Shown here: piece by piece, positions 23,524 through 64,000 of the stretch
Position numbering within the stretch: position 1 is the stretch's first letter
How the letters are laid out: every line of letters begins with the position of its first letter
Assembly: GCF_963921235.1 (NCBI RefSeq)
Contig: NC_086097.1
Location: 105,774,001-105,838,000, forward strand
DNA length: 64,000 bases
DNA from: Mobula hypostoma
Lineage: Eukaryota
Direction of reading: 5' to 3'
Notes under the pieces: generated by a model
The model's database searches: none
What the model was told of the DNA's origin: nothing
What the model saw: only the letters and a program-made list of their open reading frames with translations
Program-made: the position numbers and the translations under genes

Positions 23524-25089
23524 CTTCCATATATGCTATGCCAGTTTCCTGGGTAAATACTGATGCAAAAAAACTGTTAAGATCTCCCCCATCTCGTGAG
23601 GCTCCACACATAGATGACCACTCTGATCTTCTAGGGGACCAATTTTGTCCCTTACTATCCTTTTACTTTTAATATACTTGTAGAAAACTTTCGGGTTTAA
23701 CTTCACATTATCTGCCAAAGTAACCTCATGTCTTCTTTTTGCCTTCCTGATTTCCTTCTTTAGTAATTTCTTACATTTTCTATACTCTTCAAGTACATCA
23801 TTTGTTCATTGTTGCCTATACCTGCTATACACCTCTCTGTTTTTCTTAACCAGATCACCAATATCCCTCGAAAACCAAGGTTCCCTATGTCTGTTGACTT
23901 TGCCTTTAATCCTGGCAGGAACATGCAAACTCTGCACTCTCAAAATTTTGCCTTTGAAGACCTTCCATTTACTGAACACACCCTTGCCAGAAAACAACTT
24001 ATCCCAATCCACTCTTCCTAGATCCTTTCTCATTTCCACAAAATTGGTCCTTCTCCAATTTAGAACCTCAACTTGAGGACCTGACCTATCCTTATCCTCA
24101 ACTGTATTGGTCTCTGCCTTTCCTTTGGATTCAATCAGCTGCATGGAGAGGGAGAGCCTACTACGTGGGCAACAACTTGCTCTCCATGTCATACGGCCCA
24201 GGCTTGCGTACAGGCTGGCATATCAGGTAGTCAGCTGAAATGCGACCTCCATGGTTGACCTTGACCAACGCAGGGCCTCAAATGGGCTGTACTTCAGATT
24301 TTGTTAGCTTCAGGGCCAGAGCTTCAGGAGTGTGACTGTGGTGACGGAAGGATTGGCAAAGTATGCCTATATTGGAACTGAAGAGGGACTTGCTCACCTT
24401 GTCCTTCTGGGTAGTAGAGATAGCCAGATCAGGAGGAAGCCCCAGTGAGCATCTAGCAGGATGCGCAGTGCAGCTGTGGAGTAGGGGTGGCGGGTAGGAG
24501 AAGTGGTGTAATGATCACACTCTCACCGAGACAGTGACGGGCTTTCTGAGGCAGTTGGGTGTGGAATCAGCTGGGGAGTAATCCAATCACTCCATATGTA
24601 TATTGCGGTTGGTTGAAAGTAGGCGCTGAGTGATTTATAGAAGGTTTGTAGTGTGTAAACTCTGGTGTGTTGTGATACCATTATCAGTGATGCACTAATC
24701 CCATTACCATCGCTGTCAGTGAGAAGAACCCACTCCAGCTGGACTTGCTGAATGAACCACTAACACTTAGGCTGCTCCAAGCCTCCAGAGAAAGGCCATG
24801 TTGAAGTGGAGATTTTCTACACAGTGCTATCCTGTGCCGAGCTGCTTGCTGGCTGGATGTTCACTGCGGAGGACTCATCCTCTGGAAGGAAGTCCAACAT
24901 AACTGAGCATGTATATATAAACCAGGAATACACTGGTAACCCATCCAAAGGACCCGTTTCCATGTGGTAAAACTCTCAGACTGTGTATTTTCCTCTATAG
25001 ATGCTGCTTGACTCAAAGAATTCCTTCAGTTTCTCCAAATATTTCTAATTAACATGTTTGGGTAGAAGTTTTTTGCTTGTTCATGAAGC

Positions 25090-30969: not shown

Positions 30970-31045
30970 TGAGAAGAGTGATACAGCATAGGAAGAGGCC
31001 CTGAGGCCCACTGCATCCATTCAGACCACTTTGCCCATCTACATT
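30970..31045 (-). mobile_element. CR1 3' terminus running directly into the 39-bp array
   Basis: agagtgatacagcataggaagaggccctgaggcccactgcatccat matches the other minus-strand CR1 tails here (11058, 19810, 21640). Confidence 0.65.
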
Positions 31046-40000: not shown

Positions 40001-43000
40001 TCTTCATTGCCTCCCCTCCATCCTTGCATCCGGACATGCCCATCTACATTGCCCCCCCCATCCCTACATCAGGACATGCCCATCTACATTGCCCCCCCTC
40101 CATCCCTACATCAGGACATGCCCATCTACATTGCCCCTGTCTCTGCATCAAGACATGCCCATTTACATTGCCCCCCTGTCTCTGCATCAGGACATGCCCA
40201 TCTACATTGCCCCTGTCTCTGCATCAAGACATGCCCATCTACATTGCCCCCCTGTCTCTGCATCAGGACATGCCCAACTACATTGCCCCTGTGTCTCTGC
40301 ATCAGGACATGCCCATCTACATTGCCCCCCTGTCTCTGCATCAAGACATGCCCATCTACATTGCCCCCCTGTCTCTGCATCAGGACATGCCCATCTACAT
40401 TGCCCCCTGTCCCTGCATCAGGACATGCCCATCTACATTGCCCCCCAACCCTGCATCGGGACATGCCCATCTACATTGCCCCCCTGTCCCTGCATCAGGA
40501 CATGCCCATCTACATTGCCCCCTGTCCCTGCATCAGGACATGCCCATCTACATTGCCCTTGTCCCTGCATCAGGACATGCCCATCTACATTGCCCCCTGT
40601 CCCTGCATCAGGACATGCCCATCTACATTGCCCCCCATCCCTGCATCAGGACATGCTGATCTACATTGCCCCCCATCCCTGCATCAGGACATGCCCATCT
40701 ACGTTGCCCCCCCTCCATCCCTGCATCCGGACATGCCCATCTACATTGCCCCCCCTCCATCCCTACATCAGGACATGCCCATCTACATTGCCCCCCCTCC
40801 ATCCCTACATCAGGACATGCCCATCTACATTGCCCCTGTCTCTGCATCAAGACATGCCCATCTACATTGCCCCCCTGTCTCTGCATCAGGACATGCCCAA
40901 CTACATTGCCCCTGTGTCTCTGCATCAGGACATGCCCATCTACATTGCCCCCCTGTCTCTGCATCAAGACATGCCCATCTACATTGCCCCCCTGTCTCTG
41001 CATCAGGACATGCCCATCTACATTGCCCCCTGTCCCTGCATCAGGACATGCCCATCTACATTGCCCCCTGTCCCTGCATCGGGACATGCCCATCTACATT
41101 GCCCCCCTGTCCCTGCATCAGGACATGCCCATCTACATTGCCCCCAACCCTGCATCGGGACATGCCCATCTACATTGCCCTTGTCCCTGCATCAGGACAT
41201 GCCCATCTACATTGCCCCCCTGTCCCTGCATCAGGACATGCCCATCTACATTGCCCCCCATCCCTGCATCAGGACATGCCCATCTACATTGCCCCCCTGT
41301 CCCTGCATCAGGACATGCCCATCTACATTGTCCCCCTGTCCCTGCATCAGGACATGCCCATCTACATTGCCCCCCTGTCCCTGCATCAGGACATGCCCAT
41401 CTACATTGCCCCCCTGTCCCTGCATCAGGACATGCCCATCTACATTGTCCCCCATCCCTGCATCAGGACATGCCCATCTACATTGCCCCCCTGTCCCTGC
41501 ATCAGGACATGCCCATCTACATTGCCCCCCTGTCCCTGCATCAGGACATGCCCATCTACATTGCCCCCCATCCCTGCATCAGGACATGCCCATCTACATT
41601 GCCCCCCTGTCCCTGCATCAGGACATGCCCAACTACATTGCCCCTGTGTCTCTGCATCAGGACATGCCCATCTACATTGCCCCCCTGTCTCTGCATCAAG
41701 ACATGCCCATCTACATTGCCCCCCTGTCTCTGCATCAGGACATGCCCATCTACATTGCCCCCTGTCCCTGCATCAGGACATGCCCATCTACATTGCCCCC
41801 CAACCCTGCATCAGGACATGCCCATCTACATTGCCCCCCTGTCCCTGCATCAGGACATGCCCATCTACATTGTTCCCTTGTCCCTGCATCAGGACATGCC
41901 CATCTGCATTGCCCCCCATCCCTGCATCAGGACATGCCCATCTACATTGTCCCCCTGTCCCTGCATCAGGACATGCCCATCTACATTGCCCCCCATCCCT
42001 GCATCAGGACATGCCCATCTACATTGCCCCCCCTCCATCCCTGCATCCGGACATGCCCATCTACATTGCCCCCCCTCCATCCCTACATCAGGACATGCCC
42101 ATCTACATTGCCCCCCCTTCATCCCTGCATCAGGACATGCCCATCTACATTGCCCCCCTGTCTCTGCATCAGGACATGCCCATCTACATTGCCCCTGTCT
42201 CTGCATCAAGACATGCCCATCTACATTGCCCCCCTGTCTCTGCATCAGGACATGCCCAACTACATTGCCCCTGTGTCTCTGCATCAGGACATGCCCATCT
42301 ACATTGCCCCCCTGTCTCTGCATCAAGACATGCCCATCTACATTGCCCCCCTGTCTCTGCATCAGGACATGCCCATCTACATTGCCCCCTGTCCCTGCAT
42401 CAGGACATGCCCATCTACATTGCCCCCCAACCCTGCATCGGGACATGCCCATCTACATTGCCCCCCTGTCCCTGCATCAGGACATGCCCATCTACATTGC
42501 CCCCAACCCTGCATCGGGACATGCCCATCTACATTGCCCCCCTGTCCCTGCATCAGGACATGCCCATCTACATTGTCCCCCATCCCTGCATCAGGACATG
42601 CCCATCTACATTGCCCCCCTGTCCCTGCATCAGGACATGCCCATCTACATTGTCCCCCATCCCTGCATCAGGACATGCCCATCTACATTGCCCCCCTGTC
42701 CCTGCATCAGGACATGCCCATCTACATTGCCCCCCTGTCTCTGCATCAGGACATGCCCATCTACATTGCCCCCTGTCCCTGCATCAGGACATGCCCATCT
42801 ACATTGCCCCCCATCCCTGCATCAGGACATGCCCATCTACATTGCCCCCCTGTCCCTGCATCAGGACATGCCCATCTACATTGCCCCCTGTCCCTGCATC
42901 AGGACATGCCCATCTACATTGCCCCCTGTCCCTGCATCAGGACATGCCCATCTACATTGCCCCCTGTCCCTGCATCAGGACATGCCCATCTATATTGCCC

Positions 43001-44720
43001 CCTGTCCCTGCATCAGGACATGCCCATCTACATTGTTCCCTTGTCCCTGCATCAGGACATGCCCATCTGCATTGCCCCCCATCCCTACATCAGGACATGC
43101 CCATCTGCATTGCCCCCCATCCCTACATCAGGACATGCCCATCTACATTGCCCCCCATCCCTGCATCAGGACATGCCCATCTACATTGTCCCCCTGTGTC
43201 TGCATCAGGACATGCCCATCTACATTGCTCCCCCTCCCTGCATCAGGACATGCCCATCTGCATTGCCCCCCTGTCCCTGCATCAGGACATGCCCATCTAC
43301 ATTGTCCCCCTGTCCCTGCATCAGGACATGCCCATCTACATTGCCCCCTGTCCCTGCATCAGGACATGCCCATCTACATTGCCCCCTGTCCCTGCATCAG
43401 GACATGCCCATCTACATTGCCCCCTGTCCCTGCATCAGGACATGCCCATCTACATTGCCCCCTGTCCCTGCATCAGGACATGCCCATCTACATTGTCCCC
43501 CTGTCCCTGCATCAGGACATGCCCATCTGCATTGCCCCCCTGTCCCTGCATCAGGACATGCCCATCTGCATTGCCCCCCTGTCCCTGCATCAGGACATGC
43601 CCATCTACATTGCCCCCTGTCCCTGCATCAGGACATGCCCATCTACATTGTCCCCCTGTCCCTGCATCAGGACATGCCCATCTACATTGCCCCCTGTCCC
43701 TGCATCAGGACATGCCCATCTACATTGTCCCCCTGTCCCTGCATCAGGACATGCCCATCTACATTGCCCCCTGTCCCTGCATCAGGACATGCCCATCTAC
43801 ATTGTCCCCCATCCCTGCATCAGGACATGCCCATCTACATTGCCCCCCATCCCTGCATCAGGACATGCCCATCTACATTGCCCCCCATCCCTGCATCAGG
43901 ACATGCCCATCTACATTGTCCCCCTGTCCCTGCATCAGGACATGCCCATCTACATTGCCCCCTGTCCCTGCATCAGGACATGCCCATCTGCATTGCCCCT
44001 CATCCTTGCATCAGGACATGCGCATCTACATTGTCCCCCTGTCCCTACATCAAGACATGCCCATCTGCATTGCCCCTCATCCCTGCATCAGGACATGCCC
44101 ATCTGCATTGCCCCCCTGTCCCTGCATCAGGACATGCCCATCTACATTGCCCCCCATCCCTGCATCAGGACATGCCCATCTACATTGTCCCCCTGTGTCT
44201 GCATCAGGACATGCCCATCTACATTGCCCCCCATCCCTGCATCAGGACATGCCCATCTACATTGCCCCTGTGTCTGCATCAGGACATGCCCATCTGCATT
44301 GCCCCTCATCCCTGCATCAGGACATGCCCATCTATATTGCCCCCTGTCACTGCATCAGGACATGCCCATCTGCATTGCCCCCCTGTCCCTGCATCAGGAC
44401 ATGCCCATCTACATTGTTCCCTTGTCCCTGCATCAGGACATGCCCATCTGCATTGCCCCCCTGTCCCTACATCAGGACATGCCCATCTACATTGTCCCCC
44501 TGTCCCTGCATCAGGACATGCCCATCTACATTGCCCCCTGTCCCTGCATCAGGACATGCCCATCTTCATTGGTCCCTTGTCCCTGCATCAGGACATGCCC
44601 ATCTACATTGCCCCCCTGTCCCTGCATCAGGACATGCCCATCTACATTGTCCCCCTGTCCCTGCATCAGGACATGCCCATCTACATTGCCCCCCATCCCT
44701 GCATCAGGACATGCCCATCT
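31033..44720. repeat. ~39-bp (37-42) C-rich minisatellite, roughly 350 copies, truncated by gap
   Basis: Unit gcccatctacattgcccccctgtccctgcatcaggacat. Length varies through the poly-C tract. Confidence 0.98.
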
Positions 44721-44920
44721 NNNNNNNNNNNNNNNNNNNNNNNNNNNNNNNNNNNNNNNNNNNNNNNNNNNNNNNNNNNNNNNNNNNNNNNNNNNNNNNN
44801 NNNNNNNNNNNNNNNNNNNNNNNNNNNNNNNNNNNNNNNNNNNNNNNNNNNNNNNNNNNNNNNNNNNNNNNNNNNNNNNNNNNNNNNNNNNNNNNNNNNN
44901 NNNNNNNNNNNNNNNNNNNN
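44721..44920. other. Scaffold gap (200 N)
   Basis: A run of exactly 200 N between two different tandem arrays. The true size is unknown. Confidence 0.99.
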
Positions 44921-47900
44921 TTTCAAAGAACTCAGAATCATGTGGGAAGTTAACCAAAGGTGTTTCCATTAGGTTTGCAGTAAGTACCATGGTGTAAAAT
45001 TGAAATGTATACTATTTGTACCGTTAAAGCTTTGTATGCACTGAGATAACAACTTTTTTGACTTGATGTGTAGAGACATGAGACAACTTTCAGACATCTC
45101 AGAATCATGTGGGAAGTTAACCTAAGGTGTTTCCATTAGGTTTGCAGTAAGTACTTTGGTGTAAAATTGAAGTGCATACTAATTGCATTGTCAAAGCTTT
45201 GTACGCACTGAGATAACAACTTTCTTGTCTTGATGTGTAGAGGCATGAAACAACTTTCAAACTACTCATACTCATGTGGGAAGTTAACTTAAAATGTTTC
45301 CGTCAGGTTTGCACTCTGCACTTTGGTGGAAAATTGAAATGTATACAACTTTAATGTCAGAACATTGTATGCACTGAGAAAGCAACTTTTTTGTCTTTAT
45401 GAGCAGAGGCATGAAACAACTTGAAAACTGCTCACCATCATCTGTGAAGGCAACCAAAGTTGTTTCCATCAGGTTTGCAGTAAGTAGATTGGTGTAAAAT
45501 TGAAATGTATACTATTTGTATTGTTATAGCTTTGTATGCACTGAGATAACAACTTTATTGTCTTGATGTGTAGAGGCATGAAACAACTTTCAAACTACTC
45601 ATAATCATGTGGGAAGTTAACCTGAGGTGTTTCCATTAGGTTTGCAGTAAGTACTTTGGTGTAAAATTGAAGTGCATACTAATTGCATTGTCAAAGCTTT
45701 GTACACACTGAGATAACAACTTTTTTGTCTTGATGTGTAGAGGCATGAAACAACTTTCAAACTACTCATACTCATGTGGGAAGTTAACTTCAAATGTTTC
45801 CGTCAGGTTTGCACTCTGAACTTTGGTGGAAAATTGAAATGTATACTACTTGAATGTCAGAACATTGTACGCACTGAGAAAGCAACCTTTTTGTCTTGAT
45901 GAGCAGAGTGATGAAACAACTTTCAAACTACTCATAATCATGTGGGAAGTTAACCAAAGGTGTTTCCATTAGGTTTGCAGTCAGGACTTTTGAGTACAAT
46001 TGAAATGTATACTACTTTTATGTCAAAGCATTGTATTCACTGAGAAATCAACTTTTTTGTCTTTACGTGCAGAGGCATGAAACAACTTTAAAACTACTCA
46101 TAATCATGTTGGAAGTTAACTTAAAATGTTTCCATGAGGTTTGCACTCTGCACTTTGATGTAAAATTGAAATGTATGCTACTTGAATGTCAGAACATTGT
46201 ATGCACTGAGATAACAACTTTTTTGTCTTGATGTGTAGAGACATGAAACAACTTTCAGACATCTCTGAATCATGTGGGAAGTTAACCTAAGGTGTTTCCA
46301 TTAGGTTTGCAGTAAGTACTTTGGTGTAAAATTGAAGTGCATACTAATTGCATTGTCAAAGCTTTGTACGCACTGAGATAACAACTTTCTTGTCTTGATG
46401 TGTAGAGGCATGAAACAACTTTCAAACTACTCATACTCATGTGGGAAGTTAACTTAAAATGTTTCCGTCAGGTTTGCACTTTGCACTTTGGTGGAAAATT
46501 GAAATGTATACAACTTTAATGTCAGAACATTGTATGCACTGAGAAAGCAACTTTTTTGTCTTTATGAGCAGAGGCATGAAACAACTTGAAAACTGCTCAC
46601 CATCATCTGTGAAGGCAACCAAAGTTGTTTCCATCAGGTTTGCAGTAAGTAGATTGGTGTAAAATTGAAATGTATACTATTTGTATTGTCAAAGCTTTGT
46701 ATGCACTGAGATAACAACTTTATTGTCTTGATGTGTAGAGGCATGAAACAACTTTCAAACTACTCATAATCATGTGGGAAGTTAACCTGAGGTGTTTCCA
46801 TTAGGTTTGCAGTAAGTACTTTGGTGTAAAATTGAAGTGCATACTAATTGTATTGTCAAAGCTTTTTTATGCACTCAGATAACAACTTTTTTGTCTTGAT
46901 GTGTAGAGGCATGAAACAACTTTCAAACTACTCATACTCATGTGAGAAGTTAACTTAAAATGTTTCCATCAGGATTGCACTCTGCACTTTGGTGGAAAAT
47001 TGAAATGTATACTACTTGAATGTCAGAACATTGTACGCACTGAGAAAGCAACTTTTTTGTCTTGATGAGCAGAGTCATGAAACAACTTTCAAACTACTCA
47101 TATTCATGTTGGAAGTTACCCAAAGGTGTTTCCTTTAGGTTTGCAGTCAGGACTTTTAAGTACAATTGAAATGTATACTACATTTAAGTCAAAGCATTGT
47201 ATTCACTGAGAAATCAACTTTTTTGTCTTCATGTGCAGAGGCATGAAAGAACTTTCAGACATCTCAGAATCATGTGGGAAGTTAACCTAAGGTGTTTCCT
47301 TTAGGTTTGCAGTCAGGACTTTTGAGTACAATTGAAATGTATACTACTTCTATGTCAAAGAATTGTATTCACTGAGAAATCAACTTTTTTGTCTTTATGT
47401 GCAGAGGCATGAAACAACTTTCAGATATCTCAGAATCATGGTGGAAGTTAACCTAAGGCGTTTCCATTTGGTCTGAAGTCAGTACTTTGGTGTAAAATTG
47501 AAATGTATACTATTTGTATTGTCAAAGCACTGTATGCACTCAGAAAACAACTCTTTTGTCTTGCTGTGCAGAGGCATGAAACAACTTTCAAACATCTCAG
47601 TATCATGTGGGAAGTTAACCTAAGTTGTTTCCATTAGGTTTGCAGTAAATACTTTGGTGTAAAATTGAAATGTATGCTAAGTGTATTGTCAAAGCTTTGT
47701 ATGCATTGAGATAACAACTTTTTTGTCTTTATGAGCAGAGGCATGAAACAACTTGAAAACTGCTCACCATCATCTGTGAAGGCAACCAAAGTTGTTTCCA
47801 TCAGGTTTGCAGTAAGTAGATTGGTGTAAAATTGAAATGTATACTATTTGTATTGTCAAAGCTTTGTATGCACTGAGATAACAACTTTATTGTCTTGATG

Positions 47901-50297
47901 TGTAGAGGCATGAAACAACTTTCAAACTACTCATAATCATGTGGGAAGTTAACCTGAGGTGTTTCCATTAGGTTTGCAGTAAGTACTTTGGTGTAAAATT
48001 GAAGTGCATACTAATTGTATTGTCAAAACTTTTTTATGCACTCAGATAACAACTTTTTTGTCTTGATGTGTAGAGGCATGAAACAACTTTCAAACTACTC
48101 ATACTCATGTGAGAAGTTAACTTAAAATGTTTCCATCAGGATTGCACTCTGCACTTTGGTGGAAAATTGAAATGTATACTACTTGAATGTCAGAACATTG
48201 TACGCACTGAGAAAGCAACTTTTTTGTCTTGATGAGCAGAGTCATGAAACAACTTTCAAACTACTCATAATCATGTGGGAAGTTAACCAAAGGTGTTTCC
48301 TTTAGGTTTGCAGTCAGGACTTTTAAGTACAATTGAAATGTATACTACATTTAAGTCAAAGCATTGTATTCACTGAGAAATCAACTTTTTTGTCTTCATG
48401 TGCAGAGGCATGAAAGAACTTTCAGACATCTCAGAATCATGTGGGAAGTTAACCTAAGGTGTTTCCTTTAGGTTTGCAGTCAGGACTTTTGAGTACAATT
48501 GAAATGTATACTACTTCTATGTCAAAGAATTGTATTCACTGAGAAATCAACTTTTTTGTCTTTATGTGCAGAGGCATGAAACAACTTTCAGATATCTCAG
48601 AATCATGGTGGAAGTTAACCTAAGGCGTTTCCATTTGGTCTGAAGTCAGTACTTTGGTGTAAAATTGAAATGTATACTATTTGTATTGTCAAAGCACTGT
48701 ATGCACTCAGAAAACAACTCTTTTGTCTTGCTGTGCAGAGGCATGAAACAACTTTCAAACATCTCAGTATCATGTGGGAAGTTAACCTAAGTTGTTTCCA
48801 TTAGGTTTGCAGTAAATACTTTGGTGTAAAATTGAAATGTATACTAAGTGTACTGTCAAAGCTTTGTATGCATTGAGATAACAACTTTTTTGTCTTCATG
48901 TGTAGAGGCATGAAACAACTTTCAAACTACTCATAATCATGTGGGAAATCAACCTAAGGTGTTTCCATCAGGTTTGCATTCTGCACTTTGGTGGAAAATT
49001 GAAATGTATACTACTTGAATGTCAGAACATTGTATGCACTGAGAAAGCAACCTTTTTGTCTTGATGAGCAGAGTCATGAAACAACTTTCAAACCACTCAT
49101 AATCATGTGGGAAGTTAACCAAAGGTGTTTCCATTAGGTGTGCTGTCAGGACTTTGGAGTACAATTGAAATGTATACTACATTTATGTCAAAGCATTGTA
49201 TTCACTGAGAAATCAACTTTATTGTCTTCATGTGCAGAGGCATGAAACAACTTTCAGACATCTCAGAATCATGTGGGAAGTTAACCTAAGGTGTTTCCTT
49301 TAGGTTTGCAGTCAGGACTTTTCAGTACAATTGAAATGTATACTAATTTTATGTCAAAGCATTGTATTCACTGAGAAATCAACTTTTTTGTCTTTACGTG
49401 CAGAGGCATGAAACAACTTTAAAACTACTCATAATCATGTTGGAAGTTAATTTAAAATGTTTCCATGAGGTTTGCACTCTGCACTTTGATGTAAAATTGA
49501 AATGTATGCTACTTGAATGTCAGAACATTGTTTGCACTGAGAAAGCAACTTTTTTGTCTTAATGAGCAGAGGCATGAAACAACTTTCAAACTACTCATAA
49601 CGATGTGGGAAAGTAAGCAAAGGTGTTTGCATTAGGTTTGCAGTCCGGACTTTTCAGTACAATTGAAATGTATGTCAGAGAATGTCAAAGAATTCTATTC
49701 ACTGAGAAATCAACTTTTCTGTCTTTATGTGCAGAGGCATGAAACAACTTTCACACATCTCAGAATCATTTGGGAAGTTAACCTAATGTGTTTCCATTAG
49801 GTTTGCAGTAAGTGCTTTGGTGTAAAATTGAAAAGTATACAATTTGTATTATCAAAGCTTTGTATGCACTGAGATAACAAATTTTTTGTCTTGATGTGTA
49901 GTGGCATGAAACAACTTTCAAACTACTCATAATCATGTGGGAAGTTAACCTAAGGTGTTTCCATTAGGCTTGCAGTAAGTACTTTGGTGTAAAATTGAAA
50001 TGAAATCTATTTGTATTCTCAAAGCATTGTATACACTGAGAAAACAACTTGTTTGTCTTGCGGTGCAGAGGCATGAAACAACTTTCACACATCTCAGAAT
50101 CATTTGGGAAGTTAACCTAAGGTGTTTCCATTAGGCTTGCAGTAAGTACTTTGGTGTAAAATTGAAATGAAATCTATTTGTGTTCTCAAAGCATTGTATA
50201 CACTGAGAAAACAACTTGTTTGTCTTGCTGTGCAGAGGCATGAAACAACTTTCAAAGAACTCAGAATCATGTGGGAAGTTAACTTAAAATGTTTCCA

Positions 50298-50722
50298 ACA
50301 GGAATTCTGCAGATGCTGGAAATTCAACCAACATACATCAAAGTTGCTGGTGAACGCAGCAGGCCAGGCAGCATCTATAGGAAGAGGCGCAGTCGACGTT
50401 TCAGGCCGAGACCCTTCGTCAGGACTAACTGAAGGAAGAGTGAGTAAGGGATTTGAAAGCTGGAGGGGGAGGGGGAGATACAAAATGATAGGAGAAGACA
50501 GGAGGGGGAGGGATGGAGCCGAGAGCTGGACAGCTGATAGGCAGAAGGGGATACGAGAGGATCATGGGACAGGAGGTCCGGGAAGAAAGACGGGGGGGGG
50601 GCGGTGACCCAGAGGATGGGCAAGAGGTATATTCAGAGGGACAGAAGGAGAAAAAGGAGAGTGAGAGAAAGAATGTGTGCATAAAAAAGAGTAACAGATG
50701 GGGTACGAGGGGGAGGTGGGGC
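50298..50722 (-). mobile_element. Penelope-like element 3' end/pLTR (left arm, with tail)
   Basis: Same terminus as 23286 (acaggaattctgcagatgctggaaattcaa), continuing into purine-rich pLTR sequence. Contains a hammerhead motif. Confidence 0.8.
50391..50426 (-). ncRNA. Minimal type I hammerhead ribozyme
   Basis: The reverse complement reads agtc-ctgacga-agggtctcggcct-gaaa-cg-tc-gact, an intact core. Confidence 0.75.
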
Positions 50723-53291
50723 CTCATGGAAACATTTTAAATTAACTTCCAACATGATTATGAGTAGTTTTAAAGTTGTTTCATGCCTCTGCACGTAAAG
50801 ACAAAAAAGTTGATTTCTCAGTGAATACAATGCTTTGACATAAAATTAGTATACATTTCAATTGTACTGAAAAGTCCTGACTGCAAACCTAAAGGAAACA
50901 CCTTAGGTTAACTTCCCACATGATTCTGAGATGTCTGAAAGTTGTTTCATGCCTCTGCACATGAAGACAATAAAGTTGATTTCTCAGTGAATACAATGCT
51001 TTGACATAAATGTAGTATACATTTCAATTGTACTCCAAAGTCCTGACAGCACACCTAATGGAAACACCTTTGGTTAACTTCCCACATGATTATGAGTGAT
51101 TTGAAAGTTGTTTCATGACTCTGCTCATCAAGACAAAAAGGTTGCTTTCTCAGTGCATACAATGTTCTGACATTCAAGTAGTATACATTTCAATTTTCCA
51201 CCAAAGTGCAGAATGCAAACCTGATGGAAACACCTTAGGTTGATTTCCCACATGATTATGAGTAGTTTGAAAGTTGTTTCATGCCTCTACACATCAAGAC
51301 AAAAAAGTTGTTATCTCAATGCATACAAAGCTTTGACAATACACTTAGTATACATTTCAATTTTACACCAAAGTATTTACTGCAAACCTAATGGAAACAA
51401 CTTAGGTTAACTTCCCACATGATACTGAGATGTTTGAAAGTTGTTTCATGCCTCTGCACAGCAAGACAAAAGAGTTGTTTTCTGAGTGCATATAGTGCTT
51501 TGACAATACAAATAGTATACATTTCAATTTTACACCAAAGTACTGACTTCAGACCAAATGGAAACGCCTTAGGTTAACTTCCACCATGATTCTGAGATAT
51601 CTGAAAGTTGTTTCATGCCTCTGCACATAAAGACAAAAAAGTTGATTTCTCAGTGAATACAATTCTTTGACATAGAAGTAGTATACATTTCAATTGTACT
51701 CAAAAGTCCTGACTGCAAACCTAAAGGAAACACCTTAGGTTAACTTCCCACATGATTCTGAGATGTCTGAAAGTTCTTTCATGCCTCTGCACATGAAGAC
51801 AAGAAAGTTGATTTCTCAGTGAATACAATGCTTTGACTTAAATGTAGTATACATTTCAATTGTACTGAAAAGTCCTGACAGCAAACCTAAAGGAAAAACC
51901 TTTGGTTAACTTCCCACATGATTATGAGTAGTTTGAAAGTTGTTTCATGACTCTGCTCATCAAGACAAAAAAGTTGCTTTCTCAGTGCGTACAATGTTCT
52001 GACATTCAAGTAGTATACATTTCAATTTTCCACCAAAGTGCAGAGTGCAATCCTGATGGAAACATTTTAAGTTAACTTCTCACATGAGTATGAGTAGTTT
52101 GAAAGTTGTTTCATGCCTCTACACATCAAGACAAAAAAGTTGTTATCTGAGTGCATAAAATAGTTTTGACAATACAATTAGTATGCACTTCAATTTTACA
52201 CCAAAGTACTTACTGCAAACCTAATGGAAACACCTCAGGTTAACTTCCCACATGATTATGAGTAGTTTGAAAGTTGTTTCATGCCTCTACACATCAAGAC
52301 AATAAAGTTGTTATCTCAGTGCATACAAAGCTTTGACAATACAAATAGTATACATTTCAATTTTACACCAATCTACTTACTGCAAACCTGATGGAAACAA
52401 CTTTGGTTGCCTTCACAGATGATGGTGAGCAGTTTTCAAGTTGTTTCATGCCTCTGCTCATAAAGACAAAAAAGTTGCTTTCTCAGTGCATACAATGTTC
52501 TGACATTAAAGTTGTATACATTTCAATTTTCCACCAAAGTGCAGAGTGCAAACCTGACGGAAACATTTTAAGTTAACTTCCCACATGAGTATGAGTAGTT
52601 TGAAAGTTGTTTCATGCCTCTACACATCAAGACAAGAAAGTTGTTATCTCAGTGCGTACAAAGCTTTGACAATGCAATTAGTATGCACTTCAATTTTACA
52701 TCAAAGTGCTTACTGCAAACCTAATGGAAACACCTTAGGTTAACTTCCCACATGATTCAGAGATGTCTGAAAGTTGTTTCATGTCTCTACACATCAAGAC
52801 AAAAAAGTTGTTATCTCAGTGCATACAATGTTCTGACATTCAAGTAGCATACATTTCAATTTTACATCAAAGTGCAGAGTGCAAACCTCATGGAAACATT
52901 TTAAGTTAACTTCCAACATGATTATGAGTAGTTTTAAAGTTGTTTCATGCCCTGCACGTAAAGACAAAAAAGTTGATTTCTCAGTGAATACAATGCTTTG
53001 ACATAAAATTAGTATACATTTCAATTGTACTGAAAAGTCCTGACTGCAAACCTAAAGGAAACACCTTAGGTTAACTTCCCACATGATTCTGAGATGTCTG
53101 AAAGTTGTTTCATGCCTCTGCACATGAAGACAATAAAGTTGATTTCTCAGTGAATACAATGCTTTGACATAAATGTAGTATACATTTCAATTGTACTCAA
53201 AAGTCCTGACTGCAACCCTAATGGAAACACCTTTGGTTAACTTCCCACATGATTATGAGTAGTTTGAAAGTTGTTTCATCACTCTGCTCAT

Positions 53292-53540
53292 TGTTACGAG
53301 AATACACATAAAATTAAGATGTTTGCTGGCCTGGGCTAGCATCAGTGGCATCAGCAGTTGGTCTGCCACCTGCCCTCAGGGGAAGGAGAGATAAGGAACA
53401 ATGGAGCAGCGTCTGGAGATGTGTAATGAAGGGATGTGGGAGAGAGAGCTGTCTGGAGCGGCTCCCCCCTTTGAACCCTGAACTGTTTTGAAGTGATGGA
53501 CAGGCGATACCCCAGCAGGGGGATAAAAAGGGGGATAAAA
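53292..53540. mobile_element. Truncated LTR-like fragment
   Basis: Non-satellite block starting abruptly with TGTTACG (LTR-type TG end). It ends after a duplicated ggggataaaaag, with no closing CA and no TSD. Confidence 0.55.
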
Positions 53541-56466
53541 AGTTGTCTCATGTCTCTACACATCAAGTCAAAAAAGTTGTTATCTCAGTGCATACAAAGC
53601 TTTAACAGTACAAATAGTATACATTTCAATTTTACACCATGGTACTTACTGCAAACCTAATGGAAACACCTTTGGTTAACTTCCCACATGATTCTGAGTT
53701 CTTTGAAAGTTGTTTCATGCCTCTGCTCATCAAGACAAAAAAGTTGCTTTCTCAGTGCATACAATGTTCTGACATTCAAGTAGTATACATTTCAATTTTA
53801 CATCAAAGTGCAGATTGCAAACCTGATGGAAACATTTTAAGGTAACTTCTGACATGATTATGAGTAGTTTTAAAGTTGTTTCATGGCTCCACACATCAAG
53901 AAAAAAAAGTTGCTTTCTCAGTACATACAACGTTCTGACTTTAAAGTTGCATGCATTTCAATTTTCCAACAAAGTGCAAAGTGCAAACCTGATGGAAACA
54001 CCTTAGGTTAACTTCCCACATGATTCTGAGATGTCTGAAAGTTGTTTCATGCCTCTGCACATAAAGACATAAAACTTGATTTCTCAGTGAATACAATGCT
54101 TTGACATAAAAGTAGTATACATTTCAATTGCACTCAAAAGACCTGACTGCAAACCTGATGGAAACCATTTAAGTTAACTTCCCACATGATTATGAGTAGT
54201 TTGAAAGTTGTTTCATGCCTCTGCACATAAAGACATAAACCTTGATTTCTCAGTGAATACAAAGCTTTGGCATAAATGTAGTATACATTTAAAATGTAGT
54301 TAAAAGTCCTGACTGCAAACCTAATGGAAACACCTTTGGTTAACTTCCCACATGATTATGAGTAGTTTGAAAGTTGTTTCATGACTCTGCTCATAAAGAC
54401 AAAAAAGTTGCTTTCTCAGTGCATACAATGTTCTGACATTCAAGTAGTATACATTTCAATGTTCCACCAAAGGTCAGAGTGCAAACCTGATGGAAACATT
54501 TTAAGTTAACTTCCAACATGATTATGAGTAGTTTGAAAGTTTTTTTCATGGCTCTACACATCAAGACAACAAAGTTGTTATCTCAGTGCGTACAAAGCTT
54601 TGACAATACAATTAGTATGCATTTCAATTTTACACCAAAGTACTTACTGCAAACCGAATGGAAACACCTTTGGTTAACTTCCCAGATGATGGTGAGTAAT
54701 TTTCAAGTTGTTTCATGCCTCTGCTCATCAAGAGAAAAAAGTTGCTTTCTCAGTGCATACAATGTTCTGACAATAAAGTAGTATACATTTCAGTTTTTCA
54801 CCGAAGTGCAGAGTGCAAACCTAATGGAAACATTTTAAGTTAACTTCCCACATGATTATGAGTTCTTTGAAAGTTGTTTCATGCCTCTGTACAGCAAGAC
54901 AAAAAAGTTGCTATCTCAGTGCATACAAAGCTTTGACAATACAAATAGTATACATTTCAATTTTACACCAAAGTACTTACTGCAAACCTAATGGAAACAA
55001 CTTAGGTTAACTTCCCACATGATTCTGAGATGTCTGAAAGTTGTTTCATGTCACTGCAGTGTAAGACAAAAAAGTTGATTTCTCAGTGCATACAATCCTT
55101 TGACAATACAAGTAGTGAACAGTTCAATTTTACACCAAAGTACTTACTGCAAACCTAATGGAAACACCTTAGGTTAACTTCCCACATGATTCTGAGATGT
55201 CTGAAAGTTGTTCCATGCCTCTGCACATAAAGACAAAAAAGTTGATTTCTCAGTGAATACAATGCTTTGACATAAAAGTAGTATACATTTCAATTGTACT
55301 CAAAAGACCTGACTACAAACCTGATGGAAACCATTTAAGTTAACTTCCCACATGATTATGAGTAGTTTGAAAGTTTTTTCATGGCTCTACACATCAAGAC
55401 AACAAAGTTGTTATCTCTGTGCGTACAAAGCTTTGACAATAGAATTAGTATGCATTTCAACTTTACACCAAAGTACTTACTGCAAACCTAATGGAAACAC
55501 CTTTGGTTAACTTCCCAGATGTGGGTGAGTAGTTTTCAAGTTGTTTCATGCCTCTGCTCATCAAGACGAAAAAGTTACTTTCTTGGTGCATACAATGTTC
55601 TGACATTCAAGTAGTATACAGTTCAATTTTCCACCAAAGTGCAGAGTGCAAACCTGATGGAAACATTTTAAGTGAACTTCCCACATGATTCTGAGTTCTT
55701 TGAAAGTTGTTTCATGCCTTTGTACAGCAAGACAAAAAAGTTGTTTTCTCAGTGCATACAATGCTTAGACAATACCAATAGTATACATTACAATTTTACA
55801 CCAAAGTACTTACTGCAAACCTAATGGACACAATTTAAGCTTAATTTACCACATGATTATGAGTAGTTTGAAAGTTGTTTCATGCCTCTACACATCAAGA
55901 CAAAAAAGTTGTTATCTCAGTGCGTACAAAACTTTGACAAAACAATTAGTATGCACTACAATTTTACACCAAAGTACTTACTGCAAACTTAATGGAAACA
56001 CCTTAGGTTAACTTCCCACATGATTCTGAGATATCTGAAAGTTGTTTCATGCCTCTGCACATAAAGACAAAAAAGTTGATTTCTCAGTGAATACAATTCT
56101 TTGACATAAAAGTAGTATACATTTCAATTGTACTGAAAAGTCCTGACTGCAAACCTAATGGAAACAACTTTTCTTACCTTCCCACATGATTATGAGTAGT
56201 TTGAAAGTTGTTTCATGACTCTGCTCATCAAGACAAAAAAGTTGCTTTCTCAGTGCGTACAATGTTCTGACATTCAAGTAGTATACATTTCAATTTTCCA
56301 CCAAAATGCAGAGTGCAAACCTGATGGAAACATTTTAAGTTAACTTCTCACATGAGTATGAGTAGTTTGAAAGTTGTTTCATGCCTCTACACATCAAGAC
56401 AAAAAAGTTGTTATCTCAGTGCATACAAAGCTTTGACAATACAAATAGTATACATTTCAATTGTTA

Positions 56467-56726
56467 TTTCTTCCCGGACCTCCTGTCCCATGATCCTCTC
56501 GTATCCCCTTCTGCCTATCACCTGTCCAGCTCTCGGCTCCATCCCTCCCCCTCCTGTCTTCTCCTATCATTTTGCATCTCCCCCTCCCCCTCCAGCTTTC
56601 AATTCCCTTACTCACTCTTCCTTCAGTTAGTCCTGACGAAGGGTCTCGGCCTGAAACGTCGACTGCGCCTCTTCCTATAGATGCTGCCTGGCCTGCTGCG
56701 TTCACCAGCAACTTTGATGTATGTTG
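56467..56726 (+). mobile_element. Penelope-like inverted pLTR (right arm, no tail)
   Basis: Reverse complement of 50329-50588 with about three substitutions by eye. Confidence 0.8.
56629..56664 (+). ncRNA. Minimal type I hammerhead ribozyme
   Basis: agtc-ctgacga-agggtctcggcct-gaaa-cg-tc-gact, identical to 23426-23461. Confidence 0.75.
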
Positions 56727-59604
56727 CTTAAAATGTTTCCATCAGGTTTGCATTCTGCACTTTGGTGTAAAATTGAAATGTATACTATTTATATTGTCAA
56801 AGCTTTGTATGCACTGAGATAACAACTTTTTTGTCTTGATTTGCAGAGGCATGACACAACTTTCAGACATCTCAGCATCACGTGGGAAGTTAACCTAAGG
56901 TGTTTCCATTAGGCATGCAGTAAGTACTTTGGTGTAAAATTGAAGTGCATACTAATTGTATTGTCAAAGCTTTGTACGCACTCAGATAACAACTTTTTTG
57001 TCTTGATGTGTAGAGGCATGAAACAACTTTCAATCTACTCATAATCATGTGGGAAGTTAACTTAAAATGTTTCCATCAGGTTTGCACTCTGCACTTTGGT
57101 GGAAAATTGAAATGTATACTACTTGAATGTTAGAACATTGTATGCACTGAGAAAGCAACTTTTTTCTCTTGATGAGCGGAGGCATGAAACAACTTTCAAA
57201 CTACTCATACTGATGTGGGAAGGTAAGCAAAGGTGTTTCCATTAGGTTTGCAGTCAGGACTTTTCAGTAAAATTGAAATGTATACTACTTTTGCCAAAGC
57301 ATTTTATTCACTGAGAAATCAAATTTTATGTCTTTATGTGCAGAGGCATGAAACAACTTTCAGACATCTCAGAATCATGTAGGAAGTAAAACTAATGTGC
57401 TTCCATCAAGTTTGCAGTCAGTACTTTGGTGTAAAATTGAAGTGCATACTAATTGTATTGCCAAAGCTTTGAACGCACTCAGATAACAACTTTTTTGTCT
57501 TGATGTGCAGAGGCATGAAACAACTTTTAAACTACTCATAATCATGTGGGAAATTAACTTAAAATGTTTCCATCAGGTTTGCACTCTGTACTTTGGTGGA
57601 AAATTGAAATGTATACTACTTCAATGTCGGAACATTGTATGCACTGGGAAAGCAACTTTTTTGTCTTGATGAGCAGAGTCATGAAACAACTTTCAAACTA
57701 CTCATAATCATGTGGGATGTTATCAAAGGTGTTTCCATTAGGTTTTCACTCAGGACTATTCAGTACAATTGAAATGTATACTACTTTTATGCCAAGCATT
57801 GTATTCACTGAGAAATCAACTTTGTCTTTATGTGCAGAGGCATAAAACAACTTTCAGACATCTCAGAATCAGGTGGGAATTTAACCTAAGGTGTTTCCAT
57901 TAGGTATGCAGTAAGTACTTTGGTGTGAAATGGAAATGTATACTATTTGTATTGTCAAAGCTTTGTATGCACTGAGATAACAACTTTTTTTCTTGATGTG
58001 TGGAGGCATGAAACAACTTTCAAACTACTCATAATCATGTGGGAAGTTAACCTGAGTTGTTTCCATTAGGTTTGCAGTAAGTACTTTGGTGTAAAATTGA
58101 AATGTATTGTCAAAGCTTTGTATGCACTGAGATAACAACTTTTTTGTCTTGATGTGTAGAGGCATGAAACAACTTTCAGACATCTCAGAATCATGTGGGA
58201 AGTTAACCAAAGGTGTTTCCATCAGGTATGCAGTAAGTACTTTGGTGTAAACTTGAAATGTATACAACTTTATTGTCAGAATGTTGTATGCACTGAGAAA
58301 GCAACTTTTTTGTCTTGATGTGTAGAGGCATTAAACAACTTTAACACTACTCATAATCATGTGGGAAGTTAACTTAAAATGTTACCATCAGGTTTGCACT
58401 CTGCACTTTGGTGGAAAATTGAAATGTATACTACATGAATGTCAAAACATTGTACGCACTGAGAAAGCAATTTTATTGTCTTGATGAGCAGAGTCATGAA
58501 ACAACTTTCAAACTGCTCATAATCATGTGGGAAGTTAACCTGAGTTGTTTCCATTAGGTTTGCAGTAAGTACTTTGGTGTAAAATTGAAATGTATTGTCA
58601 AAGCTTTGTATGCACTGAGATAACAACTTTTTTGTCTTGATGTGTAGAGGCATGAAACAACTTTCAGACATCTCAGAATCATGTGGGAAGTTAACCAAAG
58701 GTGTTTCCATTAGGTTTGCATTCAGTACTTTGGTGTAAAATTGAAGTGCATACTAATTGTATTGTCAAAGCTTTGTACGCACTGAGATAACAACTTTTTT
58801 GTCTTGATGTGTAGAGGCATGGAACAACTTTCAAACTACTCATAATCATGTGGGAAGTTAACTTAAAATGATTCCATCAGGTTTGCACTCTGCACTTTGG
58901 TGGAAAATTGAAATGTATACTACTTCAATGTCAGAACATTGTACGCACTGAGAAAGCAACTTTTTTGTCTTGATGAGCAGTGTCATGAAACAACTTTCAA
59001 ACTACTCATAATCATGTGGGAAGTTAACTTAAAATGTTTCCATCAGGTTTGCACTCTGCACTTTGGTGGAAAATTGAAATGTATACTACTTGAATGTCAG
59101 AACATTGTACGCACTGAGAAAGCAACTTTTTTGTCTTGATGAGCAGAGTCATGAAACAACTTTCAAACTACTCATAATCATGTGGGAAGTTAACCAAAGG
59201 TGTTTCCATTAGGTTTGCAGTCAGGACTTCTCAGTACAATTGAAATGTACACTAGTTTCGACAAAGCATTGTATTCACTGAGAAATCAAGTTTTATGTCT
59301 TTATGTGCAGAGGCATGAAACAACTTTCAGACATCTCAGAATCATGTGGGAAGTTAACCTAATGTGTTTCCATTAGGTTTGCAGTCAGTACATTGGGGTA
59401 AAATTGAAGTGCATACATATTGTATTGTCAAAGGTTTGTACGCACTGAGATAACAACTTGTTTGTCCTGATGTGTAGAGGCATGAAACAACTTTCAAACT
59501 ACTCATAATCATGTGGGACGTTAACCTCAGGTGTTTCCATTAGGTTTGCAGTAAGTACTTAGGTGTAAAATTGAAGTACATACTAATTGTATTGTCAAAG
59601 CTTT

Positions 59605-60706
59605 ACATAGAAACATAGAAAATAGGTGCAGGAGTAGGCCATTCGGCCCTTTGAGCCTGCACCGCTATTTATTATGATCATGGCTGATCATCCAACTCAG
59701 AACCCAGCCTTCCCTCCATACCCCCTGACCCCTGTAGCCACAAGGGCCATATCTAACTCCCTCTTAAACATAGCCAATGAACTGGCCTCAACAGTTTGCT
59801 GTGGCAGAGAATGCCACATATTCACCACTCTCTGTGTGAAGAAGTTTTTCCTAATCTCGGTCCTAAAAGGCTTCCCCTCTATCCTCAAACTGTGACCCCT
59901 CGTTCTGGACCTCCCCAACATCGGGAACAATCTTCCCGCATCTAGCCTGTTCAATCCCTTTAGGATCTTATACGTTTCAATCAGATCCCCCTCAATCTTC
60001 TAAATTCCAACGAGTACAAGCCCAGTTCATCCAGTCTTTCTTCATTGAAAGACCTGACATCCCAGGAATCAATCTGGTGAACCTTCTTTGTACTCCCTCT
60101 ATGGCAAAGATGTCTTTCCTCAGATTAGGGAACAAAACTGCACACAATACTCCAGGTGTGGTCTCACCAAGGCCTTGTACAACTGCAGTAGTACCTCCCT
60201 GCTCCTGTACTCGAATCCTCTCGCTATAAATGCCAGCATACCATTCGCCTTTTTCACCGCCTGCTGTACCTGCATGCCCACTTTCAATGACTGGTGTATA
60301 ATGACACCCAGGTCTCGTTGCACCTCCCCTTTTCCTAATCGGCCACCATTCAGATAATAATCTGTTTTCCTATTTTTGCCACCAAAATGGATAACTTCAC
60401 ATTTATCCACATTAAATTGCATCTCCCATGAGTTTGCCCACTCACCCAACCTATCCAAGTCACCCTGCATCCTCTTAGCATCCTCCTCACTGCTAACACT
60501 GCCACCCAGCTTCGTGTCATCCGCAAACTTGGAGATGCTGCATTTAATTCCCTCATCCAAGTCATTAATATATATTGTAAACAACTGGGGTCCCAGCACT
60601 GAGCCTTGCGGTACCCCACTAGTCACCGCCTGCCATTCTGAAAAGGTCCCGTTTATTCTCACACTTTGCTTCCTGTCTGCTAACCAATTCTCCACCCACA
60701 CCAATA
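59605..60706 (-). mobile_element. CR1 LINE 3' fragment inserted in the satellite
   Basis: Tail acatagaaacatagaaa and motifs WVENWLADRKQ...GVPQGSVLGPQLF...KFADDTKLGG...LVRPHLEYCVQF. Confidence 0.95.
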
Positions 60707-63700
60707 TCTGAGATAACAACGTTTTTGTCTTGATGTGTAGAGGCATGAAGCAACTTTCAAACTACTCATAATCATTTGGGAAGTTAACTTAAAATGTTTC
60801 CATCAGGTTTGCACTCTGCACTTTGGTGGAAAATTGAAATGTATGCTACTTGAATGTCAGAACATTGTACGCACTGAGAAAGCAACTTTTTTGTCTTGAT
60901 GAGCAGAGTCATGAAACAACTTTCAAAGTACTCATAATCATGTGGGAAGTTAACCAAAGGTGTTTCCATGAGGTTTGCAGTCAGGACTTTGGAGTCAATT
61001 GAAATGTATACTACTTTTGCCAAAGCATTTTATTCACTGAGAAATCAAATTTTATGCCTTTATGTGCAGAGGCATGAGACAACTTTCAGACATCTCAGAA
61101 TCATGTGGGAAGTTAACCTAATGTGTTTCCATTAGGTTTGTAGTCAGTACTTTGGTGTAAAATTGAAGTGCATACTAATTGTATTGTCAAAGCTTTGTAC
61201 GCACTGAGATAACAACTTTTTTGTCTTGATTTGTAGAGGGATGAAACAACTTTCAAACTACTCATAATCATGTCAGAAGTTAACTTAAAATGATTCCATC
61301 AGGTTTGCACTCTGCACTTTGATGTAAAATTGAAATGTATACTACTTGAATGTCAGAACATTGTATGCACTGAGACAGCAACTTTTTTCTCTTGTTGAGC
61401 AGAGGCATGAAACAACTTTCAAAGAACTCAGAATCATGTGGGAACGTAACTTAAAATGCTTCCATCAGGTTTGCACTCTGCACTTGTAAAATTGAAATGT
61501 ACACTATTTGTATTGTCAAAGCTTTGTATGCACTGAGATAACAACTTTTTTGTCTTGATGTGTAGAGGCATGAAACAACTTTCAGACATCTCAGAATCAC
61601 GTGGGAAGTTAACCTAAGGTGTTTCCATCAGGTTTGCAGTAAGTACTTTGGTGTAAAATTGAAGTGCATACTAATTGTATTGTCAAAGCTTTGAACGCAC
61701 TCAGATAACAACTTTTTTGTCTTGATGTGCAGAGGCATGAAACAACTTTCAAACTACTCATAATCATGTGGGAAGTTAACTTACAGTGTTTCCATCAGCT
61801 TTGCACTCTGTACTTTGGTGGAAAATTGAAATGTATGCTACTTCAATGTCGGAACATTGTATGCACTGAGAAAGCAATTTTTTTGTCTTGATGAGCAGAG
61901 TCATGAAACAACTTTCAAACTACTCATAATCATGTGGGAAGTTATCCAAAGGTGTTTCCATTAGGTTTGCACTCAGGACTTTTGAGTACAATTGAAATGC
62001 ATACTACTTTTATGTCAAAGCATTGTATTCACTGAGAAAACAACTTTTTTGTCTTGCTGTGCAGAGGCATGAAACAACTTTCAAACTACTCATAATCATG
62101 TGGGAAATTAACCTAAGTTGTTTCCACCAGGTTTGCAGTAAGTTCTTTGGAGTAAAACTCTAATGTATACTATTTGTTTTATCAAAGCATTGTATGCACT
62201 GATAAAACTACTTTTTTGTCTTGCTGTACAGAGGCATCAAACAACGTTCAAAGAACTCCAAATCATGTGGGAAGTTAACTTAAAATTTTCCATCAGGTTT
62301 GCAATCTGCACTTTGGTGTAAAATTGAACTGTATACTACTTGAATGTCAGAACATTGTATGCACTGAGAAAGCAACTTTTTCGTCTTGATGAGCAGAGTC
62401 ATGAAACAACTTTCAAACTACTCAGTATCATGTGGGAAGTTAACCTTAGTTGTTTTCATTAGGTTTGCAGTCAGGACTATTGAGTACAATTGAAATGTAT
62501 ACTACTTTTATGTCAAAGCATTGTATTCACTGAGAAATCAACTTATTTCTCTTTATGTGCAGAGGCGTGATACAACTTTCAGACATCTCAGAATCATGTG
62601 GGAATTTAACCTAAGGTGTTTCCATTAGGTATGCAGTAAGTACTTTGGTGTGAAATGGAAATGTATACTATTTGTATTGTCAAAGCTTTGTATGCACTGA
62701 GATAACAACTTTTTTTCTTGATGTGTGGAGGCATGAAACAACTTTCAAACTACTCATAATCATGTGGGAAGTTAACCTGAGTTGTTTCCATTAGGTTTGC
62801 AGTAAGTACTTTGGTGTAAAATTGAAATGTATTGTCAAAGCTTTGTATGCACTGAGATAACAACTTTTTTGTCTTGATGTGTAGAGGCATGAAACAACTT
62901 TCAGACATCTCAGAATCATGTGGGAAGTTAACCAAAGGTGTTTCCATCAGGTATGCAGTAAGTACTTTGGTGTAAACTTGAAATGTATACAACTTTATTG
63001 TCAGAATGTTGTATGCACTGAGAAAGCAACTTTTTTGTCTTGATGTGTAGAGGCATTAAACAACTTTAACACTACTCATAATCATGTGGGAAGTTAACTT
63101 AAAATGTTACCATCAGGTTTGCACTCTGCACTTTGGTGGAAAATTGAAATGTATACTACATGAATGTCAAAACATTGTACGCACTGAGAAAGCAACTTTA
63201 TTGTCTTGATGAGCAGAGTCATGAAACAACTTTCAAACTGTTCATAATCATGTGGGAAGTTAACCAAAGGTGTTTCCATTAGGTTTGCAGTAAGTCCTTT
63301 GGTGTAAAATTGAAATGTATACTATTTGTATTGTCAAAGCTTTGTATGACTGAGATAACAACTTTTTTGTCTTGATGTGTAGAGGCATGAAACAACTTTC
63401 AAACTACTCGTAATCATGTGGAAAGTTAACCTGAGGTGTTTCCATTAGGTTTGCATTCAGTACTTTGGTGTAAAATTGAAGTGCATACTAATTGTATTGT
63501 CAAAGCTTTGTACGCACTGAGATAACAACTTTTTTGTCTTGATGTGTAGAGGCATGGAAGAACTTTCAAACTGCTCATAATCATGTGGGAAGTTAACTTA
63601 AAATGATTCCATCAGGTTTGCACTCTGTACTTTGGTGGAAAATTGAAATGTATACTACTTCAATGTCAGAACATTGTACGCACTGAGAAAGCAACTTTTT

Positions 63701-64000
63701 TGTCTTGATGAGCTTTGTCATGAAACAACTTTCAAACTACTCATAATCATGTGGGAAGTTAACCAAAGGTGTTTCCATTAGGTTTGCAGTCAGGACTTCT
63801 CAGTACAATTGAAATGTACACTAGTTTCGACAAAGCATTGTATTCACTGAGAAATCAAGTTTTATGTCTTTATGTGCAGAGGCATGAAACAACTTTCAGA
63901 CATCTCAGAATCATGTGGGAAGTTAACCTAATGTGTTTCCATTAGGTTTGCAGTCAGTACATTGGGGTAAAATTGAAGTGCATACATATTGTATTGTCAA

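Follow-up and report, generated by a model that had tools for sequence, protein, structure and literature searches.

A Penelope-like insertion in satellite DNA of Mobula hypostoma associated with a local inverted duplication

Inverted pseudo-long terminal repeats (pLTRs) with a tail are standard for insertions of endonuclease-bearing Penelope-like elements (PLEs) (PMC3846280; PMC8557442; PMC11167929). In vitro, a PLE protein cut and extended both strands of the target and two start sites of its reverse transcriptase (RT) set the tail; the repair step that follows cutting was left open by that work (PMC11167929). At breaks made by L1, neighboring DNA can be inverted, duplicated in inverted orientation or folded back while the target duplication is preserved, outcomes for which resection, self-annealing or replication plus fusion have been offered as explanations (10.1101/2024.12.14.628481). 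Double-strand breaks in yeast yield fold-back inverted duplications, in which microhomology marks one end and end-joining the other (PMC11724301). In Adineta vaga, host genes and non-coding DNA are framed by PLE pLTRs inside a target duplication (PMC3846280). Here we analyzed a 64,000-nucleotide stretch of the Mobula hypostoma genome (the window; positions 105774001-105838000 on contig C1, NC_086097.1, of a 3.48-Gb assembly). We show that a PLE insertion in the 166-bp satellite of this window is associated with an L1-like local inverted duplication.

The insertion and its family

The left (427 bp) and right (260 bp) arms of the insertion enclose 5.74 kb of opposite-strand satellite (Table 1). 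When 50329-50588 was aligned against 56726-56467, 257/260 positions were identical, and the first ~28-31 nt of the element, the tail, were present in the left arm alone. The 15-mer at 50283-50297 recurred at 56727-56741, forming a target-site duplication similar in length to those of the control copies described below, and the satellite monomer resumed in register after its right copy. By the strand map, the 166-bp satellite is in + orientation at 44921-50297, in - orientation at 50722-56462 and again in + orientation from 56727, with a flip at each arm (50297/50722 and 56462/56727). A preliminary description of the window had claimed the recurring 15-mer, inverted arms with ~3/260 differences, the one-sided tail, the orientation flips and the resumption in register, and all of them were located as described.

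A search of the animal's own genome with the arm returned copies 97-99% identical across the whole arm (the best 40 of 2,115 candidates were scored). In three long copies (L045, L048 and L052), an open frame spanning 748-965 codons runs on the opposite strand to the left arm and stops at the arm's inner end. These frames have Pfam matches to RVT_1, with E values between 2.5e-6 and 3e-5, and to GIY-YIG, with E values between 7e-4 and 1.9e-3, in both cases below the curated cut-offs; the window's own arms are non-coding. These matches support the assignment of the termini to a PLE family predicted to encode an RT plus a GIY-YIG endonuclease at the C terminus, and the coding parent presumed in the preliminary description was thus found in three copies linked to the terminus. 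By eye, the family protein carries a YIDD motif, and a C-X4-C-X2-C linker precedes GIY-YIG in protein P0001. A zinc-finger-like CX2-5CxxC between RT and endonuclease is the criterion for Neptune/Nematis (PMC8557442), by which the linker of the predicted protein places the element with the Neptune/Nematis clades and excludes Penelope/Poseidon. Tandem pLTR copies of the family were found at L013, L046 and L119.

Followed inward from the target, each arm has the antisense orientation relative to the element RNA, which argues for two separately primed cDNAs, one per cut end. Arms made as cDNAs primed from each cut end would agree with the in vitro result (PMC11167929). At the position of junction 1, the element reads on as CCTAGC in 24 of 29 copies, with close variants in the other five. 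A pattern search detected a hammerhead core motif in both arms. Rfam returned no hammerhead match for the arm sequence, folding of the monomer gave a z of -0.38, and single-strand folding gave no ribozyme signal; minimal hammerhead motifs are believed to act as dimers (PMC4209133).

As controls we used 48 other tail-bearing insertions classed by inspection, namely the 29 best arm matches, a set biased to long copies, and 19 pattern matches. Inverted twin-arm insertions made up 23/48, with spacers of at most ~45 bp, and single-arm or fragmented copies with a duplication 20/48; three were tandem or complex, and two had no duplication or partner. Kilobase cargo was found in none of the 48 (0/48). 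Among 12 twin-arm controls that were measured, arm identity was 97.5-100% (98.5-98.8% here), and the right arm started at element position 24-35 in 11, as it does here. The arm geometry is thus supported as the family's normal twin-arm form. A contiguous survey of 200 kb, kept outside the 48, gave 12 element matches and no cargo case. For the two controls that have no duplication (L055 and L124), no partner arm or mirror copy was detected ~19 kb downstream or 10 kb upstream. Five controls (L011, L061, L113, L117 and L123) have inner junctions with short duplicated or patchwork element pieces, as expected for end-joining repair. The window itself holds an ordinary form at 23289-23529, a short twin-arm insertion of an older family variant (duplication of 15 bp, spacer of 11 nt), which confirms the second insertion of the same geometry reported earlier at 23 kb.

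Three variants shared by the arms had been read as the sign of a common template. They occur in 22, 28 and 27 of the 29 other genomic copies, which makes them subfamily-wide, and the arms have no private variant in common when compared with those copies; as proof of one template they were rejected. The arm differences were likewise rejected as proof of two sources, since positions 183 and 237 also vary within ordinary insertions.

The spacer and its donor

The first 1,756 bp of the spacer are the reverse complement of 49470-47715 with nine differences, and the next 474 bp are the reverse complement of 46547-46074 with three; the extra 7-monomer duplication of the flank sits between the two mirrored segments. 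Thirteen consecutive monomers lie in mirror order with 0-3 differences each, whereas background monomer pairs (n=4,465) have a median of 27 differences and 10 at the 5th percentile. The copy begins 827 bp upstream of the target, and the donor is still in place. The strict co-linear mirror copy amounts to ~2.4 kb: beyond the mirrored 2,230 bp follow two more satellite monomers, a fragment resembling a long terminal repeat (LTR), a deletion and then the match to 45090-44921. With the donor dimer as query, 99% identity was reached only by flank and spacer and at most 94% by other contigs (150 of 257 matches listed). The 20-mer at the spacer start was found exactly twice among the 1,383 in-phase sites of the scanned arrays, once in the donor and once in the spacer. 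Copy and donor differ at 12/2,230 positions and the arms at 3/260, which is not a significant difference (Fisher p = 0.20); this equal divergence, together with the geometry, is consistent with one event.

Neither the window nor the 60 kb that follow it contained a near-identical copy of 49471-50282. Since the uncopied 827 bp is locally single-copy and the donor is retained, the block was added from next door, not moved. Inversion in place would instead have flipped a pre-existing tandem duplicate between two cuts at the same motif, with the arms filling the seams and the target-site duplication arising by coincidence. The duplicated motif is common, and 18 positions match when the first 20 nt of the spacer are compared, reversed, with the first 20 of the right flank. 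The right-flank start equals the left-flank end at 15/15 positions, yet a rare allele that spacer and donor share is replaced there by the common one; the right flank holds no duplicate of 49471-50297, and the old boundary would have to match the break within ~20 bp. We regard such an inversion as very improbable.

The preliminary description had the arms bracketing 5.7 kb of inverted satellite. Most of the spacer is indeed satellite, but it is impure, as the 241-bp LTR-like fragment at 53292-53532 interrupts it. This fragment is identical to many other genomic copies, and is likely a later insertion that was followed by a deletion. It ends (to 53540) with a 9-12-nt local duplication before the satellite restarts. 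A complete LTR-like copy lies in the same satellite at L095:525-1394; it measures ~870 bp, has TG...CA termini and is accompanied by a short duplication.

For 53709-56462, no donor was found in the window or in the 60 kb beyond it, and a 64-nt probe from this part of the spacer had no other match with <2 mismatches genome-wide (one probe only). The missing part of the donor would lie in the assembly gap, or was lost.

Table 1. Coordinates of the insertion, its spacer and its donor in the window (element sense is given for the arms).
Feature	Position	Strand	Remarks
Donor satellite, left flank	44921..49470	+	From N-gap edge; one extra 7-monomer (1,167-bp) tandem duplication
Uncopied satellite, fold-back point to target	49471..50282	+	827 bp including duplicated word
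Target-site duplication (15 bp), left copy	50283..50297	+	
Left PLE arm	50298..50724	-	Tail ~50298-50328, then pLTR; ends at stop codon of the open reading frame
Hammerhead minimal core motif, left arm	50398..50422	-	Pattern match only
Junction 1	50722..50724		3-bp microhomology CCT, element and donor (49468-49470)
Mirror copy of 49470-47715 and 46547-46074	50722..52951	-	12 differences in 2,230 bp
Inverted satellite related to left flank	52952..53291	-	Co-linearity lost
Young LTR-like repeat, 5' fragment	53292..53532	+	241 bp; not in donor
Mirror copy of 45090-44921, to gap edge	53539..53708	-	1 difference in 170 bp
Inverted satellite, no assembled donor	53709..56462	-	Donor presumably in gap, or lost
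Junction 2	56463..56466		~4 nt of neither side, or one inserted base; microhomology absent
Right PLE arm	56467..56726	+	5'-truncated, no tail; hammerhead core motif 56633-56657
Target-site duplication, right copy	56727..56741	+	First 3 nt also match element; satellite in register after

Repair of the break

Element identity, arm geometry, local donor and junction sequences are the observations from which we infer every step of the mechanism favored here: a single insertion with both ends primed, whose left end was repaired by DNA-templated fold-back and then attached to the right arm by end-joining (probability of about 0.62). The element endonuclease would make a staggered double-strand cut, and both 3' ends would prime reverse transcription on element RNA, the left end at the tail start and the right end ~30 nt further in. 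The cDNAs would not be joined directly, as they are in ordinary copies. The left end would be resected by at least 827 nt, and the left cDNA end would pair via CCT/AGG with upstream satellite, either within the same strand or, once replication had taken place, on the sister chromatid. Some 5.7 kb of reversed flank would then be added by DNA synthesis or by fusion of the sisters, and the extended end would be joined to the right arm without homology. The mirror may later have been partly blurred, in the copy by an LTR-like insertion with a deletion and in the donor by tandem changes. Microhomology at one end with end-joining at the other would, by analogy, be the signature of a fold-back inverted duplication. 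The donor lies 827 bp from the site although arrays of the 166-bp satellite are present on at least eight contigs, which argues for a DNA template in cis.

The preliminary description had proposed one RT template switch from element RNA to local satellite, completed by the same cDNA on the pLTR. The origin of the spacer from local satellite stands; copying by the RT itself and a single cDNA running to the pLTR are less likely. A jump of the PLE RT to a satellite transcript or nascent RNA (or its copying of the DNA itself), with the kilobase cDNA then joined to the second arm, is in our view decidedly unlikely. A + strand satellite RNA with its end at 49470 would suit the orientation, and PLE machinery reportedly mobilizes host genes with introns, as well as non-coding DNA, between pLTRs (PMC3846280). 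A diffusible RNA, however, would rarely come from a donor only 827 bp away when so many contigs carry arrays, and the longest arms seen in the family reach ~3.4 kb per unit. The satellite is without introns or poly(A), so that an RNA origin leaves no mark, and an RT working on a DNA template is indistinguishable here from a host polymerase. We give a similarly low chance to the PLE RT having moved, once 427 nt of element RNA had been copied, to adjacent satellite, whether nascent RNA or resected DNA, and polymerised >5 kb. If it did, a telomerase-related enzyme would directly lengthen and invert satellite arrays in the vertebrate germ line.

Several points weigh against a single insertion repaired by fold-back. 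The duplicated 15-bp word is a common satellite motif (nine copies on + and seven on - in the window), so that the weight of the duplication rests on register and geometry; by a rough estimate, the chance of a same-subtype monomer resuming 10-17 bp back is ~1% without target preference. About 2.75 kb of the 5.74-kb spacer is without an assembled donor, and co-linearity is broken at 52952-53538. Divergence of the donor monomer makes the empty-site test on paralogous monomers (1,383 sites) both weak and biased. Hairpins in the L1 inverted duplications were small, whereas the loop here would be ~1.25 kb. The identity of the polymerase cannot be read from sequence. The fold-back point lies in the nearest upstream same-subtype monomer, 2-5 nt from the equivalent cut phase, and only 4/84 AGG sites in the flank share that phase and subtype (a condition seen after the fact). 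Finally, reads were checked through contigs of four public runs on 50240-50860, mostly ~60 nt long (three runs are one sample, which may be the assembly's source), and no listed contig piece bridges a junction with 31 nt on both sides.

The missing bridge is a point in favor of an assembly artefact, a fold-back beside a contig end, as are the N gap 5.4 kb away at the left-flank start and the two other satellite strand switches that also lie near gaps. Against it, copy and donor differ by 12 substitutions, by the 7-monomer duplication and by the LTR-like fragment, and a fold-back read would not yield a pair of arms with and without tail and an in-register duplication. An artefact is therefore extremely improbable.

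A fold-back point so near a target-like phase is better accounted for by a second cut or second insertion than by a free fold-back. Under this alternative, which we consider possible but unlikely, the matching motif at 49452-49470 on a sister or homologous chromosome would have received a second endonuclease cut or a second insertion, simultaneously or as an earlier single-arm insertion; the resulting end would become attached to the left arm by joining or recombination, and the captured piece would then be joined to the right arm. Single-arm copies of the family form their 5' junctions by microhomology between the genomic 3' end and the cDNA, in keeping with such a step, and a donor on the homologue would fit the structural differences that separate spacer from flank. 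A preference for the motif was not seen: among 41 other tail matches preceded by GTTTCC, 0/19 fetched loci lay in 166-bp satellite, and an insertion into the satellite on contig C66 occupies a different monomer phase. A second cut also needs more breaks or events, and the arm differences at positions 183 and 237, which recur within ordinary single insertions, are no mark of two sources. The C66 insertion (L108:3255-5421) is a single-arm, 2.2-kb copy of the family with a patchwork 5' junction and no inversion.

Satellite strand switches and known systems

The 166-bp satellite is present from 44921 onward, directly 3' of a 200-N gap (44721-44920), and its + orientation persists ~55 kb past the window end. 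We surveyed 256,511 bp of this satellite in 12 stretches for strand switches. Three independent events were found, one of them with a PLE (1/3), so that the proposed enrichment of the terminus at satellite strand switches was not seen; PLE insertion is thus one route among several to such switches. Two arrays on contig C21 (L095:4795 and L099:4704) share the same PLE-free switch junction, each near an assembly gap, and the phase of this junction equals that of the right junction in the window. PLE sequence was absent at the C21 switch junctions seen, the far ends of the C21 inverted blocks entering gaps. The C21 stretch L099-L103 holds one inverted monomer, in identical copies at 17115-17268 and 22150-22303, 5,035 bp apart.

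In the window, a 1.1-kb non-satellite insertion at 59602-60707, putatively the 3' end of a CR1-type long interspersed nuclear element, breaks the array. The right flank at 57825-59431 compared with 62550-64000 reveals a recent duplication (4.6-4.7-kb period, 97-99% identity), which points to fast local array turnover. Two further tandem arrays, with 35-bp and 38/39-bp units, occupy 26183-28708 and 31032-44720, the latter running up to the N gap.

This locus offers a fixed, base-resolved PLE insertion with a kilobase mirror copy of its own flank. It (i) supports PLE insertion via a true double-strand break, with both ends primed and a repair that can be diverted; (ii) would extend an L1 outcome in somatic cells to another retroelement class; and (iii) provides a concrete origin for one strand switch in a satellite array and for its gain of 5.7 kb, and with it a possible route by which such arrays lengthen and flip direction. 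Its importance is limited: the event is rare (0/48 other insertions), two other switch events are without PLE, and host repair suffices without new enzymology. A kilobase mirror copy of the flank between PLE arms was not found in the open-access literature searched, as far as its accessible text extends, and the available part of PMC9977147 has nothing on PLE-linked inversions.

Like the inverted-pLTR insertions described for PLEs, the locus has head-to-head truncated copies, a 30-40-nt tail at one end and a short target-site duplication; its arms match the minimal hammerhead motif by pattern, and its family shares, by prediction, the RT with C-terminal GIY-YIG. In those insertions the arms are adjacent (spacers of at most ~45 bp in 23/23 here), whereas 5.7 kb of host DNA separates them in this one. 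Host DNA between pLTRs within one target duplication is also found in Adineta vaga, where a gene was copied elsewhere in trans and read as RNA-mediated (PMC3846280); here a mirror copy of the immediate flank forms the cargo and the arms are 5'-truncated. Yeast fold-backs likewise have microhomology-primed synthesis at one end and end-joining at the other, but most measure 5-34 bp and involve no retroelement, in contrast to the kilobases copied here (PMC11724301).

With L1, as reported for cancer genomes and L1-expressing clones, the locus shares a break attributed to a retroelement, a kept duplication, a reversed copy of the neighboring DNA and short microhomology at the turn; the inverted adjacent copy with its donor kept, the 3-bp CCT at the turn and the 15-bp duplication are all present. 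It differs in the retroelement class, in coming from an assembled animal genome rather than somatic clones, in having element cDNA at both ends and in its satellite target. The turn here follows a cDNA-extended end and would leave the ~1.25-kb loop, whereas the L1 duplications shown lie on the reciprocal end with small hairpins (10.1101/2024.12.14.628481).

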